Below, one piece after another: positions 4,042-16,011 of a stretch of DNA of 64,000 bases. The notes under the pieces were generated by a model. That model saw only the letters and a program-made list of their open reading frames with translations. It was not told the origin of the DNA and searched no databases. Source of the DNA: Sedimentisphaerales bacterium (GTDB taxonomy: Bacteria; Planctomycetota; Phycisphaerae; Sedimentisphaerales; Anaerobacaceae); contig OY970194.1 of assembly GCA_963708075.1 (NCBI GenBank), positions 2,944,001-3,008,000 of the forward strand. Direction: 5' to 3'. How positions within the stretch are numbered: the stretch's first letter is position 1; each line of letters opens with the position of its first letter. A program made the position numbers and the translations under genes.

Positions 4042-5823
4042 TCAGGTCATGCCGATACTGTGGGGGTTCCGCCGCTCCGGCAGCCCCTCGCCAACGCCCG
4101 AAAAACCACTCCCGTTCTTCGTCCCGCCCGTTCGGATTGTCCCAGAACGGTCCTTATACCGCTTCAACGCATCGAGCGCATCGATCAGGCGGGAGCGGTA
4201 GTTGCCCTTATGCTCGCCAACTTCCTGCAACTCGATCATACAATCACCCAACTGCACTGACTCCGTACGGGCCAGAACAGCACGGAGTGCGAAATCTTCG
4301 TCGGATCGCAGAATTTCGAACAAAATTGCGGCGACCTCCCGCAGGATGGGAACGTCAAACAGATCCTCCGTGATCTCCTGCCCGATGTTGTGAAACAGCC
4401 CCGGCTCATTGAACAGGACCTCGAGGATTTCCCGCTGGGCGGCCGCATGCAAGCCCTGGCCCCAATCGACCGCCTCCGCCGCATTCTGCCGCTGCTTTGA
4501 CTGCGAGAGTCTCTCTATCCTCTTGTTGACATCAGCGTTGACCTCTTTAGGGTCCAAGCCGATGATTTTAGCCACCTTATTCACGAGCAGCCCGCTTTCA
4601 AGCATGGGCAGATTGCCCGCCGCCAGGCCGGTCGCCACCGCCTGAAGGAACTCGTTCAGGGCCGCCTTCTTGTTGGCCAGCGAGCCATCCGTCTTGAAGG
4701 CGGTCTCCAACTGGTTCCACTTGTATTGCAGGACGTCCGTCGCCTGCGCGAGAACGCGATCGAAGCCTTCCTTGCCCGCGGTCAGCAGATATTCGCAGGG
4801 GTCTTTGCCCTCCGGAACAAACGCCAGCTTGATGTCCAGGTGTTGTGACAGGCACACTTCCAGGCCCCGATTAGCGGCCTCCATCCCGGCCGTGTCGCTG
4901 TCGAAGACCAGAATCACCTGCTCCGCATAGCGGCGGAGAATCCGGCCGTGACCGCTCGTCAGACTCGTCCCCAGCGTCGCAACCACGTTGGTGCAGCCGT
5001 ACTGATGGGCCATGATCACGTCCGTATAGCCCTCGACGATGACGGCGGTCCCCGTCGCCACGATCTCGTGCCGGGCCTGTTCCAACCCATAGAGCGTGTT
5101 GCTCTTGTCGAACAGCGGCGTCGTCGGCGAATTGATGTACTTGGCGCCCGTGTTGTTGAGCGTTCTGCCGCCGAAAGCGATGACTCTGCCTGTCACATCA
5201 GTGATCGGGAACATCAGGCGGTTACAGAATTTATCCTGGCTTGTGCCCATCGCCAGGCCGCCCTGCTGCACAAGGTCCAGCGGGACCTTGTTCGCCGCGG
5301 CAGCCTTGACCAAGCCATCCACGGCGTTGGGCGCTGTGCCAAGCCGCCACTTGCTGATACTCTCCGGCGAGAGCCTCCGCTGGGCCAGATAATCCCGGGC
5401 CACTTTGCCCTTCTCCGGGTCATTGAGGCACTGCTGAAAGAATTTCATCGCCCAGGCGTTCAACTTTGCCAATCTGTTCGGATCGATCTGGGGCTGGCCG
5501 TCGGTCCGGGGCGCAGCGCGTCGGACCGGCTTGACTTGGATGCCCGCGCGCTCGGCCAGTCGCTCGACGGCCTGCGAGAATGTCAGGCCCTCGCGCATCT
5601 GGATGAACTTGAGCACGTCGCCGCCCGCCCCGCACGCAAAGCACTTGAAAATCTGCTTGGTCGCGCTGACGTTCATGCTCGGCTTGTGATCCTCATGAAA
5701 TGGACACAAGCCGACCATCTCCCGTCCCTTCCTTTTGAGGCTGACGTGCTCACCTACAACGTCAATGATATCATTCGCCTGCTGCACCCGATTGATGACA
5801 GCATGGTCGTATAGCCCTGGCAT
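4042..5823 (-). CDS. dnaG: DNA primase
   Basis: Zinc-binding CPFHEDHKPS...CFAC, RLMFPI, KYINSP, TOPRIM VEGYTDV and FDSDTAG. Confidence 0.98.
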   Translation of the reverse strand: MPGLYDHAVINRVQQANDIIDVVGEHVSLKRKGREMVGLCPFHEDHKPSMNVSATKQIFKCFACGAGGDVLKFIQMREGLTFSQAVERLAERAGIQVKPVRRAAPRTDGQPQIDPNRLAKLNAWAMKFFQQCLNDPEKGKVARDYLAQRRLSPESISKWRLGTAPNAVDGLVKAAAANKVPLDLVQQGGLAMGTSQDKFCNRLMFPITDVTGRVIAFGGRTLNNTGAKYINSPTTPLFDKSNTLYGLEQARHEIVATGTAVIVEGYTDVIMAHQYGCTNVVATLGTSLTSGHGRILRRYAEQVILVFDSDTAGMEAANRGLEVCLSQHLDIKLAFVPEGKDPCEYLLTAGKEGFDRVLAQATDVLQYKWNQLETAFKTDGSLANKKAALNEFLQAVATGLAAGNLPMLESGLLVNKVAKIIGLDPKEVNADVNKRIERLSQSKQRQNAAEAVDWGQGLHAAAQREILEVLFNEPGLFHNIGQEITEDLFDVPILREVAAILFEILRSDEDFALRAVLARTESVQLGDCMIELQEVGEHKGNYRSRLIDALDALKRYKDRSGTIRTGGTKNGSGFSGVGEGLPERRNPHSIGMT

Positions 5824-6900: not shown

Positions 6901-8062
6901 TCAGACTTGTCTTTCAAGAACGACTTTCACATCCTTGATTCTGCTTCCACGCTGGATTCTCATGGTGATTTCCTTCCCGTGGCCGGAGCGCAGCAGGTCG
7001 CGGATCTCCCACATTTCGTACGTGCTTACATCCCGGCCATCCAGCTTGAGGATGGTGTCACCCGCTTTGATACCGGCTTTTGCCGCCGGTTGACCCTTGT
7101 AGATCGCCGATACGACCGTGCGACCGTCGGAGCGATCCAGACTCACGCCGCACATGCCTGCCTCATCGGGTTTGTCGAAGCTCTCGCCCTTCTTTAGATA
7201 GAGCCTGTCGTGCGGGAAATCGAACGTCACCACATGGCGAGAGAGAAAGCCCAGGCCAAGGAGATTGTCCCTGGCCTCACTGAAGATGAGAACCGCGATA
7301 TTCAAATGGCCCGGCCGTCACGCGATCTGCGCGGATCAGCCCCGATTTGACGACGCCGCTGACCGCGAACATAGCTGTATCGACCGGTTTGAGACGGCCT
7401 TTCATGACTATGCGTCGGAAGCTATCCTTACCCAGGGCTCCGCTCATCTCGCAGCCTGTATCGATGACGAAATCCTGCTCCGGCTGACCATTCACGGCCA
7501 GCCTGATCTGCGGCATCATCATCGAGTTGTACATAATGGGAAACGCCTCTCCCCACTCCCGTGGGTCCCCCTGCTCACTGCCGAGAAAAGCGATTCGGCC
7601 CTCGTCGAAATCGATCTGAACGATATGCTTCTTCAGCACGTCCATGCCGAGTACCCCATGCACATCTCGTCCCATGGTTTCAGCGAAGCCCTTGAGGTCC
7701 GCACACATCACCTCGTTGCAGTCCGCGAGGCTGAACGGGCCCAGGAAGGCACGCGGCGCGGCAAACACCTGCATAGCGATCGGCTTCCCAGGTCCTGATA
7801 CCTTTCTGCTCCTCCTGGGTTTTCCGAGCTGGGGCCGAAATGAGAGGTCGAACAGCGTGCCCGTGCAGCCGGTGTCGAGCGTGAAATCATAGGTGCGAGG
7901 CCCGAACCGAATCGGTACGCACAACGGCCACTGGCCCGGAGCGAATGTGAATGTGGTCGCGGAATCAGATTGCACCTGGTTTGGATCGGGCCCAGATGCG
8001 CCATGGACGCGGGGATTCAACGCAACGAATAGGACGAGGCATACGCCGAATCTGCCTGCCAT
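6901..8062 (-). pseudogene. Secreted aspartyl protease with two retropepsin-like domains plus a C-terminal PDZ domain; +1 frameshift near 7291 (possibly an assembly error)
   Basis: ORF 7277-8062 has a signal peptide, FTLDTG, GVLGMD and FVIDTG; ORF 6901-7305 continues with NLLGLGFL and PDZ PAAKAGIKAGDTIL; removing one T from GGTTCTC joins them as EYRG-LIFSEARD. Confidence 0.85.
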
Positions 8063-8835: not shown

Positions 8836-9204
8836 TTACTTCGAAGCGGTGTGCTCGCTGTGCCGCTGCGACAACTTGACCGCCTTGCCGGCCCGCTCGC
8901 GCAGGAAGAACAGCTTGGCCCGGCGGACCTTGCCGCTTCGCGTCGGGCGGACATCAAGCACGTTGGGCGAATGAAGCGGGAACTTGCGCTCCACGCCCTC
9001 GTTGGCAACGATGCGCCGGACGGTAAAGCTCGCGTTCATACCGCGGCCCTGCCGGGCGATCACCGTGCCCGAGAAAATCTGCGTGCGGGTCTTTTCGCCT
9101 TCCTGAATCCGGCAGTGCACATCCACCGTATCGCCCACCTCGAAGTGCGGGATGTCCTTCTTCAGACTCTTGCTCTCAACTGCATCAAGTAACTGCGTTT
9201 TCAC
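8836..9204 (-). CDS. rplS: 50S ribosomal protein L19
   Basis: PHFEVGDTVDVHCRIQEGEKTRTQIFSG, FTVRRI..EGVERKFPLHSP, GKVRRAKLFFLR. Confidence 0.98.
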   Translation of the reverse strand: MKTQLLDAVESKSLKKDIPHFEVGDTVDVHCRIQEGEKTRTQIFSGTVIARQGRGMNASFTVRRIVANEGVERKFPLHSPNVLDVRPTRSGKVRRAKLFFLRERAGKAVKLSQRHSEHTASK

Positions 9205-9258
9205 CGGTATATCTCCGAAGATCGTATTCCTGGTCTTGGGTCGTTCAGTAAAACCTGT

Positions 9259-9287
9259 ATTTTATGCCCGCTCGCCCCCCAATGCAA
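9259..9287 (-). promoter_or_regulatory. Sigma70-type promoter of rplS
   Basis: TTGCAT-17 bp-TAAAAT on the minus strand, 55 bp upstream of the start codon. Confidence 0.7.
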
Positions 9288-9478
9288 GCCCCTTTTTCGC
9301 AATATTTTCACAACCCTTACAACCAATAGGCAGGTTTCGGAGTCTCTGGCTTCACCCAGACACGGAGAACATTCGACCAATGAATAAGGTGCTCAGCGTT
9401 GACCAGTTCACGAACTTATCTTGCGTCAACGCTGAGCACTCGACAAGATATGGCGTCCTTCGTACCAGTCGCGCCGAA

Positions 9479-12160
9479 TCACTGCTTGGGCTCGATGCTC
9501 AGTTGTACGGGCACCGGCCCGTCATTTCCCTCAGTGCCGTAGGTCCCCGGCTCACCGGCCCACGAGGAGTCGCCCGCGGGCCACTCTGGACCGCCCGGCA
9601 TTCCTCTACCTGCGCGGCCGGCGCGGGCAGTCAGAGCGAGCTCAGACGAAAGAGAAGTCCCATAGTAGAGCCATATATGGCCCCCTGAGCCGCCAGCACC
9701 ACCGCCACCGCCACCGCCACCGCCCGAAATACCCCCGACGTTTCCATAAGCGTTCCCCCCAATCTCGCCGTCTGACCCGTCGGTTCCGTTCACGTCTATG
9801 ACACCGCTACCGGTGATCGCCCCCGACACCATCAGGCAGAGAGCACCACCATGCAGGCCCTTCGCGCCGCCGTTTCCTCCGCGGCCTCCCCACGCGTGCT
9901 CAACGTGCAGATCGTAAGCTTCCCCGCGGCCACCTCCGCCACCGCCCCCGTAGGCGGCATTCGGATCCTTTCCCCGGCGGTTTGTAGTGCAGTAATCACT
10001 GGCACTACAGTCTCCGGGCGTTCCGGCCCTGCGACAACTGCCGCCAACACCACCATGTCCAACAAAGATAGTTGCGCCAGCGCCCCCCCCGCCTCCGCCG
10101 CTACCGTAGCCGCAGCTCACATCTTCTCCTCCGCGGCCCCCATAGAGGCCCCCGCTTCCGCCGAATCCGCCTGTGGCCTGCACGATCTTATAGCTCAGAA
10201 GCTGGTTTCCGCCCTGGAAGGGCACCCATACACTCCACGTACCACCGTCGTGCGAAAGGCCGTTGTAGTCAACCATACCGTCAATAGTGCAGTCTGTCCT
10301 GCAACCAAGCAGAGTGATGGCGCCCGCCTGTCCCTTTAGCTCCCCGAGCTCCTGCTCGTAGGTTCGTGCGATTTCATTGTATCGGCTCTTCGTATCTGCC
10401 GTGAAATGGGCGAATTCATCATGCCAACTGGCATTTCTTTCCCACTGTCGGCTTGGCTGAATGGTAAAGTCATTCCTGCGTTTGTCCCCATATCCAACGA
10501 TACTAAAGTGGGTGTCTTGGGCGATGCGGATTCGATTGAAATCCATGATTGTGCCCGCCAAGAGAGTCCACGGCCCGGTCCCTTCCTCAAGGATGAGATC
10601 TCCGTCAACGCCACGCGGCCAGTTGTTGTCACCGACGATGTTCTTCAGGATTGGGCTTCTCTCCTTGGGATCCATCATGAGAGGGTCTTCCTCCAATCCC
10701 TTGGCGTAACGCAGTTCGGCATACCCTTTGGCCCGCAGTTCCTGCTTCCTATCCGCTGGGCGGATATAGTACGAGATCCCCATGTAGAGTGCCGCCTTAT
10801 ACGCATCCTCCAGACTCTTGATCTCGGAGGGACTCTTAATGGAAGGATCTGAGCCAGGTACGTACATCCGCGCATAAAGAAACTGGCGTCTCTCATAGTA
10901 TTTCGCAAGTAATTCGTAGAAGTCGGCAAGAGCGCCAAGCTCGGCATCAGAGGTGCCGGACATTACGAGGTTGTCAGGCAGAGGAGCCATCTCAAGGCGT
11001 CCGACCTCATATCGTGCGATTTTCTGGCCGACGAAGTCGAGGTCTTTCGGGGCTGGCCAAGAATAGTCGAACGCGATTCGTGGTACCGGGATCCCAGGAT
11101 CTGATGGATACCTCTTAAGGAAGGTCATGATTTGGGGGAGGATCCCAGGCACCAATGTCACGCCGTCCTGGTCTACCTTGCCATCAACGGCATCTCTCGC
11201 GGCATCCAGTTTCGCAACGTCAATATTTGTAAACTCATCGGGGTGCTCCGCGATGTTTCTGAGCCGTTGGCTGATAAGCCAGTACTTGTGCCACTGTATG
11301 AGCTGATCCTGCTGCACCTGCATCTGGTCCAGCAGTATCTGATTCTCGATCTGTGTACGTCCGACAAGCAATCCTTCATACCCCGACAGTTCGGCCTCCT
11401 GAGGATGTGCATTGTCTTTGACAGTCTTCGCGAATCGGTCGCAGGCGGTGATCAAGTTCGCGACATTCGGCTCACCAAGCGTAAGCAGCCCGCCCTCGGT
11501 CCTATAGTCCAGCTGCACCTTATGGGATTGTCTGAACCGTTCGAGGTGGGTCGTGAGGTCGGCACTTGCAGAATATGTAGCATATCTTCCACTTAGGCTG
11601 ACACTCAGCTGTTCTCGCATCGTCTCACTCATGTCATCAATCGTGAGAATCGCGTACAACTCACCGCCTTCTCTGATCGCCGATATATAATGGGTGCCGG
11701 CGCGTTGCAGGAATTGATCCAATGGTAATCCGAGAATGACGTCGCACGGGTCGGGCGATCCCTTGAACCGCTGTATCGCGGTAGTCACCTTCACAGAGAC
11801 ATACAATGTCACGGAATTGGCGGATCTGCTATAATTCTTGGACCAATTCAGTTTTGTGCTGGCCGACCAAGCCACTTCGTTTGCAGAGACATCGACAGAC
11901 AGGCCCATCGCCTTCGCGAGTTCCTCCCGCGTCTCAATCAGGTAAAGGCTGTACACTTCCTCTATGAATGGCACCCTCTCCACAGGGCCACCAACAGCCT
12001 TCTCCCTCGCCTGCCCATTAATAAGGTCCACACCCATCCCCAGTTGGATCTTGCCATACTGAGGGTCGTCAGGTCCGGCCAAGTCGATGCCTATATACGC
12101 GTCCGCGCAGGGGCTCAGGGCCAGCACCAATGATAGTAGGATGATCTTACGGTGTCTCAT
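9479..12160 (-). CDS. Secreted protein with an N-terminal MACPF/CDC-like domain and a C-terminal Gly-rich domain
   Basis: Signal peptide MRHRKIILLSLVLALSPCADA; FLQRAGTHYISAIREGG matches the MACPF signature G-T/S-H-Y/F-X6-GG (11663-11698); long Gly-rich C-terminus; visibly lower GC than the flanks. Confidence 0.7.
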   Translation of the reverse strand: MRHRKIILLSLVLALSPCADAYIGIDLAGPDDPQYGKIQLGMGVDLINGQAREKAVGGPVERVPFIEEVYSLYLIETREELAKAMGLSVDVSANEVAWSASTKLNWSKNYSRSANSVTLYVSVKVTTAIQRFKGSPDPCDVILGLPLDQFLQRAGTHYISAIREGGELYAILTIDDMSETMREQLSVSLSGRYATYSASADLTTHLERFRQSHKVQLDYRTEGGLLTLGEPNVANLITACDRFAKTVKDNAHPQEAELSGYEGLLVGRTQIENQILLDQMQVQQDQLIQWHKYWLISQRLRNIAEHPDEFTNIDVAKLDAARDAVDGKVDQDGVTLVPGILPQIMTFLKRYPSDPGIPVPRIAFDYSWPAPKDLDFVGQKIARYEVGRLEMAPLPDNLVMSGTSDAELGALADFYELLAKYYERRQFLYARMYVPGSDPSIKSPSEIKSLEDAYKAALYMGISYYIRPADRKQELRAKGYAELRYAKGLEEDPLMMDPKERSPILKNIVGDNNWPRGVDGDLILEEGTGPWTLLAGTIMDFNRIRIAQDTHFSIVGYGDKRRNDFTIQPSRQWERNASWHDEFAHFTADTKSRYNEIARTYEQELGELKGQAGAITLLGCRTDCTIDGMVDYNGLSHDGGTWSVWVPFQGGNQLLSYKIVQATGGFGGSGGLYGGRGGEDVSCGYGSGGGGGGAGATIFVGHGGVGGSCRRAGTPGDCSASDYCTTNRRGKDPNAAYGGGGGGGRGEAYDLHVEHAWGGRGGNGGAKGLHGGALCLMVSGAITGSGVIDVNGTDGSDGEIGGNAYGNVGGISGGGGGGGGGAGGSGGHIWLYYGTSLSSELALTARAGRAGRGMPGGPEWPAGDSSWAGEPGTYGTEGNDGPVPVQLSIEPKQ

Positions 12161-12243
12161 AGTTCTTCCTCCAACCTCCAATGAAATGTGAACCATCCAC
12201 TCCGCATGAGATACACACGGTACTTCTCTCACGCACCATTTGC

Positions 12244-12272
12244 ACACTATTACAATAGTAATTACACATCAA
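12244..12272 (-). promoter_or_regulatory. Sigma70-type promoter of the MACPF gene with a BlaI/CopY-type operator in the spacer
   Basis: TTGATG-17 bp-TAGTGT; palindrome ATTACTATTGTAAT at 12249-12262 resembles the TACAnnTGTA BlaI/MecI/CopY box. Confidence 0.7.
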
Positions 12273-12399
12273 GAGGAAAATAGTGAGAATTTTACCCTCA
12301 CTTCAGATCTTGTGCGTGCAGGCCGGCGAAGTGGAGAGGCTATCTTGCTTGCTGTGGCTTTGAATTGACCATGACCGTGTTAGAAAGGGATCTGTTGCG

Positions 12400-14022
12400 T
12401 CAATCAGGTCCTGGCGCGTGCTCCCGCTGCCATTGGGGGTTGGATTTCGGATTGTCAGACGTCTTGATCCTCCAGACGGTATGCACGTCCCAGTAGCTTC
12501 GAATGTCCCTGCCCATGCTCTCCGCACGGACCCGTCCCTGTTCATCCAGCCGGAGGTATCCATCTTTGAGGTTGTGCGATATCAGCCACACACCTTGCGG
12601 ATGAGGGTAGGTACCCCAGCGTGCCGCTTCATTGGGCTCGAGTGCGTCGACCGCGAGGTTTCCCTGCTTGTCCGACGTCAGATACTTGCGCGCGGCAACG
12701 GAATAGAAGTACATGATATCCTTCGGCGTGTTAGAGACCTCATCGAAGCGAAATTCCCACAAGCCTGCCTCGCCCGGCTCGTTAGCGTCGCAGGTGACCC
12801 TGTCTCCGTCCACCACCAGATACTTACCCGTGTCCAAGTTGCGGATGCAGGCCCTCTGAATGTTCGCATGCCTGTCCTGATGCGTCGTAGGGAAGTTCTG
12901 TCGGGCGTAATCGTCCCAAGTCCCACCGGCTGCGAGCCCATTGCTCAGCCCCGCGATGGCCAGGAGTCCCACGATCATGATGGCCAAGGGGGACCGGCGG
13001 CGCGTCTCCTGGCGGAACTGAGAGATCATGGCGATTCTCTGTTTGATCCGGGCCCTGTCGCCCGAAAGGGCGGCCAGCATCCGATGAGGCCGGGATGTGA
13101 GCAACTGCTCGATCTGATGCACAACGGTCCGCCCATAGGCGGACGTCTCTTCGGGAGGAAGCACAGACAGAGCCAACTCGTCACAGACCATCTCCCGGTC
13201 GGCTCGCATCCGTTTGAAGCCCAGGGCGATCAGCGGATTGAACCAGTGCAGAACCTGCAACAGCGTAACGAGGTAGCTGATCAGGATGTCGTGACGTTTA
13301 AGGTGGGCGAGCTCATGCAGGAAGACGTAACGGAGTTCCTGGAGGCTCAGATCGGCCAGTGTCTGCCTGGGCAGCAACAGCCGGGGTCGGATGAATCCAA
13401 ACAGGGCGGGGCTCTCGATCCGGTCGATCGCAACCACCTCGACAGCACGTCTTATGCCCATTTGCTTCTGACAGTCTTTCAGCAGACGGCGAATCCGTCG
13501 ATTGATTACAGGAGGCTTGCGTCGAACGATACGCCAAAGATGGACGTAGCCTGCAATGATGTGGCCGGCCAACACGCACGCACCGGCCAGCCAGAGCCAC
13601 AGGATGATGGTTCGAGCGTTCTCCCAGAGCCGTGCCCTCGCTGACAGACTTGCCGGGGCGCCGGCCTTTTGTGTGCCGTTGGCAGTCGGGTCGGCCTTGC
13701 CACGCCTTTCCGTGGCGAAGGCTCCGTTGGTCGCCGCAAGAGCCGACCCGACATTGCCGGACTGAGGAGTGGCGGCCCACCTGTATCCTTCCCACTGTGG
13801 CAGTGGCAGGAGGTTGTGCACGCTCACAGGGCTCGGAGGCGCCCAGAACATCGCCATGCGAACTAACACCACAAGCCACAGCCAGTAGCGCCCGCGAACG
13901 CCGAGCTGGCGGCCCAGGAATCTTTGAATCAGCAGGATCAGGCAGATTAACACGCTTGCCTGCCAGCTTGTCTGCAGGAGCCATTGAAAGAACGGCTGCG
14001 GATATGTGGTCACAGGGCCCAC
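12400..14022 (-). CDS. BlaR1/MecR1-type M56 metallopeptidase sensor with a beta-trefoil-like C-terminal domain
   Basis: RYWLWLVVLVR, SPALFGFIRPRLLLP, HELAHLKRHD, LHWFNPL, DREMVCD; three C-terminal repeats GKYL..W / RKYL..W / DGYL..W. Confidence 0.9.
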   Translation of the reverse strand: MGPVTTYPQPFFQWLLQTSWQASVLICLILLIQRFLGRQLGVRGRYWLWLVVLVRMAMFWAPPSPVSVHNLLPLPQWEGYRWAATPQSGNVGSALAATNGAFATERRGKADPTANGTQKAGAPASLSARARLWENARTIILWLWLAGACVLAGHIIAGYVHLWRIVRRKPPVINRRIRRLLKDCQKQMGIRRAVEVVAIDRIESPALFGFIRPRLLLPRQTLADLSLQELRYVFLHELAHLKRHDILISYLVTLLQVLHWFNPLIALGFKRMRADREMVCDELALSVLPPEETSAYGRTVVHQIEQLLTSRPHRMLAALSGDRARIKQRIAMISQFRQETRRRSPLAIMIVGLLAIAGLSNGLAAGGTWDDYARQNFPTTHQDRHANIQRACIRNLDTGKYLVVDGDRVTCDANEPGEAGLWEFRFDEVSNTPKDIMYFYSVAARKYLTSDKQGNLAVDALEPNEAARWGTYPHPQGVWLISHNLKDGYLRLDEQGRVRAESMGRDIRSYWDVHTVWRIKTSDNPKSNPQWQREHAPGPD

Positions 14023-14024
14023 GA

Positions 14025-14402
14025 CTAACCCTTGCCTTTTTGGTTGAGCATCCGCTTCAGTTCTTCAATGTCCTCCGGCGAGAGCTTGGCATCGTCGATG
14101 AAGGCGGCCAGCATCGGCGCGATGGTGCCTCCGTACACGCGATGGACGAATGAACGCCTTTCCTGCCGAATGCATTGTTCCCGACTGACGGCAGGGAAAT
14201 AGCGGTACCTGCGGCCTTCTTGCTCGTGTTTCAAGGCCTTCTTTCGGAGCAGTCGGTTGAGGAGGGTCCGGATCGTGCGCGCACTCCAAGTGACTTTCCC
14301 CCGGAGCGCGTCTACCACTTCATCGGCCGTCAAGCCCGGCCTCGACCACAGCACCTGCATCACCAACCACTCCGCGTCCGAGATCCTGGGTAGTGTTCGC
14401 AT
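14025..14402 (-). CDS. BlaI/MecI/CopY-family transcriptional repressor
   Basis: ISDAEWLVMQVLW, TIRTLLNRLLRKKAL, YRYFPAVSR, LSPEDIEELKRML; directly upstream of the M56 gene. Confidence 0.95.
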   Translation of the reverse strand: MRTLPRISDAEWLVMQVLWSRPGLTADEVVDALRGKVTWSARTIRTLLNRLLRKKALKHEQEGRRYRYFPAVSREQCIRQERRSFVHRVYGGTIAPMLAAFIDDAKLSPEDIEELKRMLNQKGKG

Positions 14403-14416
14403 ACTGCTCTCTCGTG

Positions 14417-14466
14417 ATTACATCCGTAATACCCACCAAACTATCATATCTGTAATCGCAGGTAAA
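14417..14466 (-). promoter_or_regulatory. blaI promoter with two BlaI-type operators
   Basis: TTTACC-17 bp-TAGTTT; boxes ATTACAGATATGAT (14443-14456, in the spacer) and ATTACGGATGTAAT (14417-14430). Confidence 0.75.
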
Positions 14467-14721
14467 GGGAAAATAAAGAAAATTTGACTTCGGCCATCAG
14501 AATTTTGGAGTTGAGACACCATTGCGGCGGCAAGTCCCTGTGTCGCAGGACTTTGTCACATGCACGGGGCACCGATAGACGGCTGTGTCCTCACAGAATG
14601 AAGTCACCTGCATAGAGCCGGGCGGGAGGCATTTTGCTTGCGTTGAGGGGCAGTTCCATCAACAATGCCGGTTCTGATGGACGTTGTCCGGCAAATTGAT
14701 GGTCAATGGAGGCACGACACT

Positions 14722-16011
14722 ATGATTCGACGACGGAACCTTTTCCTGTGGACCCTGGTGGTGTTGATCGTCCTTGCCCCGGCGGCGTACGGGCAGGGGT
14801 TGCCAAAGGCGTCGCCGAAGTCGGTTGGGCTGTCCCAGGAGCGGCTGGATCGGATTACCGCCGTGATGCAAAAGCACGTGGACGACGGCCGGCTCGCCGG
14901 CGCGGTGGCGATGGTCGCACGCGACGGCAAGGTGGCCTACCTGCACAGCGTGGGCATGCGGGACAGGGAGCAACAGGTCGAAATGAGCCCGGACACTATC
15001 TTCCGGATCGCCTCGATGAGCAAGCCCATCACCAGTGTCGCCGTGATGATGCTGTACGAGGAAGGACGCTTCCAGCTCAAGGACCCGATCTCGAAATTCA
15101 TCCCGGAATTCAGGGCGCCGAAGGTGATCGTCACGGCGCAGGGTTCGCAGGAGCAGATCGTGCCGGCCAAACGCGAGATCACGATCCGCCACTTGCTGAC
15201 GCATACCTCCGGATTGACGTACCAGTGGGACCCCCGCGTCGGCCAGAAATACAAGGACGCAGGCATCACGCACGGCCTGCTGCAGGATGAGGACCTGCTG
15301 GCCGACGATATGAAGAAGCTCGCCCAGATGCCGCTCGTGCATCAGCCAGGTGAGGCGTGGACTTACGGGCTCTCGGTGGACGTGCTCGGGCGGCTGGTGG
15401 AGGTCGCATCCGGTATGTCGTTCGACGAGTTCCTCCGCAAGCGAATCTTCGAGCCGCTGCGGATGAAGGATACCTGCTTCTTCCTTCCGCCGGACAAGGC
15501 AGGCAGACTGGCCGCTGTCTACAGCCCCGATCCGAATGGAACCCTGAAGCGACTGGGCAACGGCGTCATCGGCACCGGATCGTTTGTCTGCACGGTGACG
15601 TATCCCTGCGAGGGCCCGCAGCGATACTTCTCCGGCGGCGGCGGGCTGTGCTCGACGATCTCCGATTATGCCCGTTTCGCGCAGATGTTGCTCAACGGCG
15701 GCGAGCTGGACGGCGTCCGGCTGCTCAGCCCCACGACGGTGAGAATGATGGCTACGGATCAGGTCGGCGACTTGAGTCGTGACACCGGCTTCGGCCTGGG
15801 CTTCGGCGTCACCCGCAACCTGCGCGAGGCCGGCGAGCTGACCAGCGTCGGAGCGTACCGCTGGGGCGGGTTCTGGTACACGACGTTCTTCATCGACCCG
15901 GCCGAGAACATGCTCGGCATCTGCATGGCCCAGTTGCACGGATCCAGCAAGGCCACTCTCAACGACCAGTTCGAGGCACTCGCCCACCAGGCCATCGTCA
16001 AGTCACACTGA
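14722..16011 (+). CDS. Secreted serine hydrolase of the beta-lactamase (class C/EstB-like) family
   Basis: Signal peptide; FRIASMSKPI (SxxK), LLTHTSG, PGEAWTYGLS, SGGGGLCST, WGG. Confidence 0.92.
   Translation: MIRRRNLFLWTLVVLIVLAPAAYGQGLPKASPKSVGLSQERLDRITAVMQKHVDDGRLAGAVAMVARDGKVAYLHSVGMRDREQQVEMSPDTIFRIASMSKPITSVAVMMLYEEGRFQLKDPISKFIPEFRAPKVIVTAQGSQEQIVPAKREITIRHLLTHTSGLTYQWDPRVGQKYKDAGITHGLLQDEDLLADDMKKLAQMPLVHQPGEAWTYGLSVDVLGRLVEVASGMSFDEFLRKRIFEPLRMKDTCFFLPPDKAGRLAAVYSPDPNGTLKRLGNGVIGTGSFVCTVTYPCEGPQRYFSGGGGLCSTISDYARFAQMLLNGGELDGVRLLSPTTVRMMATDQVGDLSRDTGFGLGFGVTRNLREAGELTSVGAYRWGGFWYTTFFIDPAENMLGICMAQLHGSSKATLNDQFEALAHQAIVKSH

Follow-up and report, generated by a model that had tools for sequence, protein, structure and literature searches.

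Predicted BlaI-type operators before blaI and a MACPF-fold protein gene in a Sedimentisphaerales bacterium

The described systems closest to the locus considered here are BlaI/BlaR1 and MecI/MecR1 of Staphylococcus aureus and Bacillus licheniformis (PMC1935004) and the CenIR switch of Clostridioides difficile (PMC13492132). For the former, that source gives an operator palindrome, TACANNTGTA, with tandem operators at the repressor promoter. For the latter, the paper describes a blaI-blaR pair without a transpeptidase domain, where CenI represses, 500-fold, a gene for an exported protein that lies 215 bp downstream of cenIR. The same text places a penicillin-binding domain in about 6% of M56 proteins, leaving ~94% of BlaR-like sensors without one. 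Here, the subject is a locus of comparable layout in a Sedimentisphaerales bacterium, lying in a window of 64,000 nucleotides (G000:C1:2944001-3008000, the whole stretch of DNA analysed) on a single 7.5-Mb contig with 60% G+C. A blaI gene, a gene for a BlaR-like M56 protease and a gene for an 893-amino-acid signal-peptide protein with a predicted MACPF fold follow one another on its minus strand. This switch likely controls the perforin-fold protein, since the operator found before blaI recurs in the promoter predicted for the MACPF gene.

The original prediction, made from the letters of the sequence, saw in this arrangement a candidate new system. No new, conserved system is present here; the locus is a one-genome combination of a known type of switch with an unusual cargo. 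The general layout has already been published (CenIR, PMC13492132), and a MACPF gene stands beside the switch in none of 11 orthologous loci. A literature search found no paper that joins BlaI or BlaIR control with a MACPF protein.

The tandem itself is confirmed by gene calls and Pfam. The repressor (125 aa, 14402-14025, minus strand) matches PF03965 with 125 bits against a cut-off of 22.6 (E 1.8e-36) and aligns with MecI. The membrane protease (540 aa, 14022-12400, minus) matches PF05569 with 216 bits (E 9e-64). After a gap of 239 nt comes the MACPF-fold gene (12160-9479, minus), identified by profile and fold searches and by a full-length homologue, P0156. Its start is placed at ATG 12160, which has a GGAGG site ahead of it; another protein of its cluster in the database is 893 aa long as well. 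A longer reading frame from GTG 12247 was rejected; its start would sit within the -10 element.

The locus resembles CenIR in its blaI-blaR pair without a transpeptidase domain and in an exported-protein gene some 200 bp downstream as the repressed target (215 bp there, 239 here, where repression is predicted). Unlike CenIR as described, this locus has a folded beta-trefoil sensor, a diderm host, an 893-aa MACPF cargo and an operator that can be seen in each of its two predicted promoters. With BlaI/BlaR1 and MecI/MecR1, as PMC1935004 presents them, it shares the repressor family, the recognition helix, the M56 HExxH motif, the TACANNTGTA-type palindrome and tandem operators at the repressor promoter. 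It differs from them in having no penicillin-binding domain and in placing the predicted target downstream in tandem, rather than divergently. At the N101/F102 cleavage site of BlaI and MecI, the asparagine is replaced here by alanine, while the phenylalanine is kept.

Operators in two predicted promoters

Three boxes and two promoter registers had been proposed for this locus, and all were found again at the same positions and spacing. The predicted MACPF promoter (12272-12244, minus) consists of TTGATG (12272-12267), a spacer of 17 nt and TAGTGT (12249-12244); an exact box, ATTACTATTGTAAT (12262-12249), fills its spacer and touches the -10 element. The predicted blaI promoter (14466-14438, minus) consists of TTTACC (14466-14461), again 17 nt, and TAGTTT (14443-14438), and within it lies the distal blaI operator, ATTACAGATATGAT (14456-14443), which has two mismatches. 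The proximal blaI operator, ATTACGGATGTAAT (14430-14417), is exact, and six orthologues have a box at a similar place, about -30. A weak terminator-like hairpin (12282-12302, minus) lies directly ahead of the MACPF -35 element; its fold z of -0.9 is not above chance.

The genome-wide scan for ATTAC-N4-GTAAT that the original prediction had proposed as a check gives exactly three copies in 7.5 Mb, two of them at this locus (in the MACPF promoter and before this blaI) and the third before another blaI (C1:6121204). When the 239-nt gap between the M56 and MACPF genes is shuffled, an exact box arises in 71 of 200,000 trials. The box in the gap is therefore not a product of chance.

Orthologous loci carry the same signal. 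A box precedes blaI in eight of the nine that have upstream DNA, and in five of these loci the register is identical, with the box beginning at base 5 of a spacer of 17 nt, between better hexamers. These are TTGACA-17-TACGAT (G151 and G171), TTGACT-17-TAGTTT (L018), TTGACG-17-TAGCAT (L017) and TTGACT-17-TAGGCT (L021). The core of the MACPF promoter aligns without gaps to the orthologous blaI promoters and to the promoter of a response-regulator gene in one relative (G185). The core at the repressor's own promoter, TACGGATGTA, has one mismatch to the TACANNTGTA-type palindrome, and several orthologues contain an exact TACAGATGTA. On the protein side, the winged-helix recognition helix ARTIRTLLNRL aligns with PKTIRTLITRL of MecI/BlaI (MecI 1sd6, E 7.8e-20).

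Rankings within the genome point the same way. A promoter-plus-box profile of 35 nt, built from five blaI-promoter sites taken entirely from other genomes and scanned over both strands, gives the MACPF promoter the top score, 29.7 bits, followed by the blaI promoter with 28.6; the site after these reaches 19.8. By a box-only profile, likewise built on other genomes, the MACPF box comes 5th in full, 4th with the two central bases masked and joint 1st of three with four masked. Boxes, profile ranks and conservation in orthologues thus bear out the proposal of a BlaI-type operator in both promoters, and by this comparison BlaI likely represses the MACPF gene.

Two lone strong box-like sites elsewhere (C1:1150558 and 6699334) have no matching promoter profile and may be further BlaI targets. 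Separately, a REP-like palindrome, TGCTTACGC-NN-GCGTAAGCA, occurs in 99 copies in the genome (for example at C1:27435, 128912 and 263882) and in none in the window; it often lies between arms of the GGGTGCCA / TGGCGCCC type.

Sensor and cargo

The M56 protease carries HELAH at aa 236-240, a motif kept in nine of nine complete orthologues, and a hydrophobic stretch (aa 344-367) precedes its C-terminal domain. By the topology of BlaR1, such a C-terminal sensor domain faces the periplasm. Here, this domain (12927-12403, minus) is a predicted periplasmic beta-trefoil of the fascin/FGF-like type. Its profile, A5, matches designed beta-trefoils in the PDB at E 6.5e-7 and fascin at E 0.006, as well as FGF, and Pfam Fascin matches nine of 12 sensor rows (two of the rows being duplicates). 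No SxxK occurs after residue 345. The blaR1_generic model scores 213 against a cut-off of 400, its matched part ending at aa 356, and the scores fall far below the BlaR1/MecR1 cut-offs. Because of the beta-trefoil C-terminus, the missing SxxK and these scores, the protein is judged not to be a beta-lactam sensor of the BlaR1 type, which agrees with the original view that the module does not serve beta-lactam resistance. The locus would then belong to the broad BlaIR (M56) family, and not to the canonical BlaR1/MecR1 beta-lactam sensors.

The cargo begins with what resembles a cleavable signal peptide without a lipobox (aa 1-21), in keeping with the secreted protein that had been predicted. A MACPF domain (about aa 38-330), a helical middle and a glycine-rich C-terminal region follow. 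The region of about aa 38-330 has 616 distant relatives at E<=0.001, and the 142-row profile A1 matches Aegerolysin-L (E 5e-25), Mpf2Ba1, TgPLP1, GNIP1Aa and stonustoxin. The structure model of the domain has a pLDDT mostly of 80-97; the Foldseek matches listed are MACPF/CDC proteins throughout, TgPLP1 first (E 1.9e-10) with MPEG-1, stonustoxin and perforin also present. The atlas is in agreement. The protein itself has no match in Pfam (PF01823) or NCBIfam, and Pfam MACPF is matched by two of the 25 rows of alignment A3 at E<=0.01. Profile and Foldseek searches together bear out the proposed identity, and the N-terminal domain is modelled with the MACPF fold, which has a kinked central sheet and two clusters of helices.

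A signature-like A-G-T-H-Y-x6-G-G stands at aa 154-166 (11701-11663, minus), differing in its first position from the MACPF signature, Y/W-G-T/S-H-F/Y-x6-GG. G155 and G165 are invariant in the 142-row A1 (numbered 134 and 144 in the trimmed query). MACPF pore-forming toxins have amphipathic alternation in both of their TMH segments; judged by eye, aa 85-110 and 185-205 show an alternating small-polar/hydrophobic pattern. Glycine makes up 30-40% of aa 651-850. By its features the C-terminal region resembles mostly viral hypothetical proteins (0.94), and by its sequence two unnamed proteins.

Only one full-length homologue was found, P0156, which is 931 aa long, aligns over 655 columns with 25% identity and has an additional Ig tail. 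Because of it, the order of signal peptide, MACPF domain, helical middle and glycine-rich region is, as the alignment indicates, that of a real, rare family with two known members. By prediction, the protein shares with BSAP-1 (10.64898/2026.08.05.742979) and other bacterial MACPF toxins (Mpf2Ba1, GNIP1Aa and Aegerolysin-L, matched in the PDB) a secreted MACPF domain and, behind it, a separate C-terminal region that may confer target specificity. Unlike those toxins, the present protein has a glycine-rich C-terminal region resembling mostly viral proteins.

A second database copy, P0001 (Logan), has 775 aa and a frameshift at a G-rich tract encoding poly-glycine (about 10070-10100 of the window), which may be an assembly slip or phase variation. 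Another signal-peptide protein in the window, at 7277-8062, has two retropepsin-like aspartyl protease domains.

Distribution of the module

Orthologues of the sensor's C-terminal domain occur in seven of 200 family genomes and in four further distinct loci (L017, L018, which equals L022, L019 and L021), giving the 11 loci; L020 and L023-L025 were excluded as weak, with E above 1e-4. The closest orthologues among named records come from metagenome-assembled genomes of Phycisphaerae/Phycisphaerales.

A gene for a REC-LuxR response regulator follows M56 in eight of the 11 (G127, G175, G198, G185, L017, L018, L019 and L021; Pfam was checked on two of the eight). In the other three (G151, G171 and G106) the place is taken by a gene for an unrelated protein whose start resembles a signal peptide; that of G106 is an LRR protein, and there an assembly gap hides blaI. 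The blaI-M56-MACPF synteny that might have been expected in related genomes was seen at none of these loci. In G185 (L015, G185:C227, about 4480-4545, minus), the interval from M56 to the response regulator contains two boxes in the register seen here, and none lies before blaI, as if the operators had moved. They may serve as a precedent for a downstream slot under the control of the switch.

A search for the MACPF gene found it in none of 200 family genomes and none of 17 genus genomes, and among 370 order genomes the one match was to an Ig tail. A profile of the MACPF family gives one convincing match in 400 class genomes and one in 400 phylum genomes. These two genes, in L034 (G467:C242, 2416-4623; this one passes Pfam MACPF) and L033 (G791:C96, 2438-4501), have no blaI or M56 match by tblastn in the stretches fetched around them. 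The G+C content at third codon positions (GC3) of the MACPF gene is 0.63, against 0.73-0.85 in six neighbours. A foreign origin is suggested by this low GC3 together with the lack of matches in the family and genus samples; the best reading of these patterns is that the gene was horizontally acquired into the downstream slot of a conserved, non-canonical BlaIR module.

The module of blaI, M56/beta-trefoil and REC-LuxR regulator is itself conserved in Phycisphaerae (L010, L012, L014, L015, L017, L018, L019 and L021), where a BlaIR switch apparently feeds a second regulator. In L013 (G171:C36, 251-5944, minus), the region downstream of an orthologous switch encodes four paralogues in tandem, each of 376-392 aa and with the look of exported proteins; they bear repeated VSADGSVVVG motifs, and the one tested matched no Pfam family.

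Competing readings and a proposed mechanism

Several observations weigh against control of a pore-forming protein by this BlaI. The pairing of blaI-M56 with MACPF is seen in one genome only, and a downstream box in only one of the 11 orthologous loci (G185). Both hexamer pairs match the sigma-70 consensus at just 7 of 12 positions, so both promoters are weak, and a consensus promoter scan listed neither. One of the five training sites of the promoter-plus-box profile was a mis-picked second box, and an earlier box profile, dominated by an AGAT/GGAT centre, put the MACPF box 121st. The MACPF box also shares 13 of 14 bases, centre included, with the operator ACTACTATTGTAAT of a paralogous blaI (C1:391965). 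The model of the C-terminal region of the cargo is unusable (pLDDT 33). In the related CopY, finally, PMC7253601 reports a 10-base core as insufficient for binding. Despite the weak hexamers, the register of the promoters is supported, because the orthologous blaI promoters share it.

The alternative that survives best, which we nevertheless hold to be improbable, is a relic promoter. Here, the box and its promoter would be left over from the gene that originally lay downstream, or from a duplicate of the blaI promoter, and control of a recently landed MACPF gene would be incidental and unselected. The gapless alignment of the core with the promoters of blaI genes and of the G185 response regulator speaks for this, as do the response regulator in most orthologous slots, the orphan status of the MACPF gene in the family and genus samples and the neighbours of the module, which vary between genomes. 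Against it, the arms of the MACPF box form a perfect palindrome, better than the distal blaI box; no remnant of a response regulator is found in 9000-15000 (best E 0.26); and in a tree, where the placement of G185 has weak support, the window's sensor and that of G185 do not form a group. An incidental origin and a present function of the box are, of course, not exclusive.

Less probable still is control by another repressor. Eleven blaI genes are present in the genome, and behind each of them lies an M56 match. The modules have long C-terminal sensor regions that differ and operator variants specific to each paralogue; two tandem pairs of them lie at C1:388062-395250 and 6506500-6511950. A paralogous BlaI (C1:391965 or C1:388138) might mainly read the MACPF box, and the gene would then answer to another sensor, or to several, because the C1:391965 operator differs by one base and the paralogous helices (SRTIKTLISRL and RETIRTLINRL) resemble ARTIRTLLNRL. 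However, the outer arm ATTAC fits the boxes of the adjacent BlaI and not ACTAC or GTTAC, and the C1:391965 promoter scores 13.6 bits against 29.7 for the MACPF promoter. Outer arm and linkage favour the adjacent BlaI.

Very improbable indeed is a beta-lactam divergon, with BlaI controlling the divergent PF00144 serine hydrolase (14722-16011, plus; not mentioned in the original prediction and probably outside the module) as it would blaZ and MACPF a bystander, for although that gene has an SMSK motif and a signal peptide and lies beside blaI, the M56 protein has no penicillin-binding sensor domain, the hydrolase scores 55 against a class C beta-lactamase cut-off of 415 and below all beta-lactamase cut-offs shown, the boxes lie 266-305 nt from its ATG, a search of 10 long orthologous loci (two more being too short) did not find it, and in five of five genus relatives it is unlinked to blaI/M56.

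We think it fairly probable that the adjacent BlaI keeps the MACPF gene off until a triggered protease inactivates BlaI, whereupon the exported protein forms a pore at its target. BlaI dimers would cover the spacers of both predicted promoters. By analogy with BlaR1/MecR1, a periplasmic ligand (a glycan, an envelope fragment or a protein) might bind the beta-trefoil and activate the zinc protease; BlaI would then be inactivated, both promoters would open, and blaI-M56 and the MACPF gene would be transcribed. Following what holds for MACPF proteins generally, the exported protein, once across the outer membrane, may use its glycine-rich C-terminal region to attach to the surface of a target and then oligomerise to form a beta-barrel pore; competitors or grazers are the most plausible targets. 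Proteolysis, export, pore formation and target are all things we infer from these analogies. Antagonism, towards bacteria or grazers, and adhesion or another non-lytic role appear about equally plausible.

The distribution suggests that the conserved module is blaI-M56-response regulator and that, in this genome, the third slot may hold an acquired MACPF gene behind a blaI-type promoter. A bolder version, which we offer tentatively and think rather doubtful, sees in the beta-trefoil BlaR a surveillance receptor of the periplasm, which arms a perforin whose fused glycine-rich part would be a receptor-binding domain of phage type. Such a weapon of antagonism in a planctomycete would be inducible and gated by a protease, and would have arisen by a swap of cargo into a portable BlaIR switch.

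With its pairing seen in a single genome, the locus is of limited value. It would exemplify BlaIR control over a MACPF protein in bacteria. It also combines a folded, conserved sensor domain with a sharply defined operator and a read-out from two promoters, and a screen for the ligand is therefore feasible.

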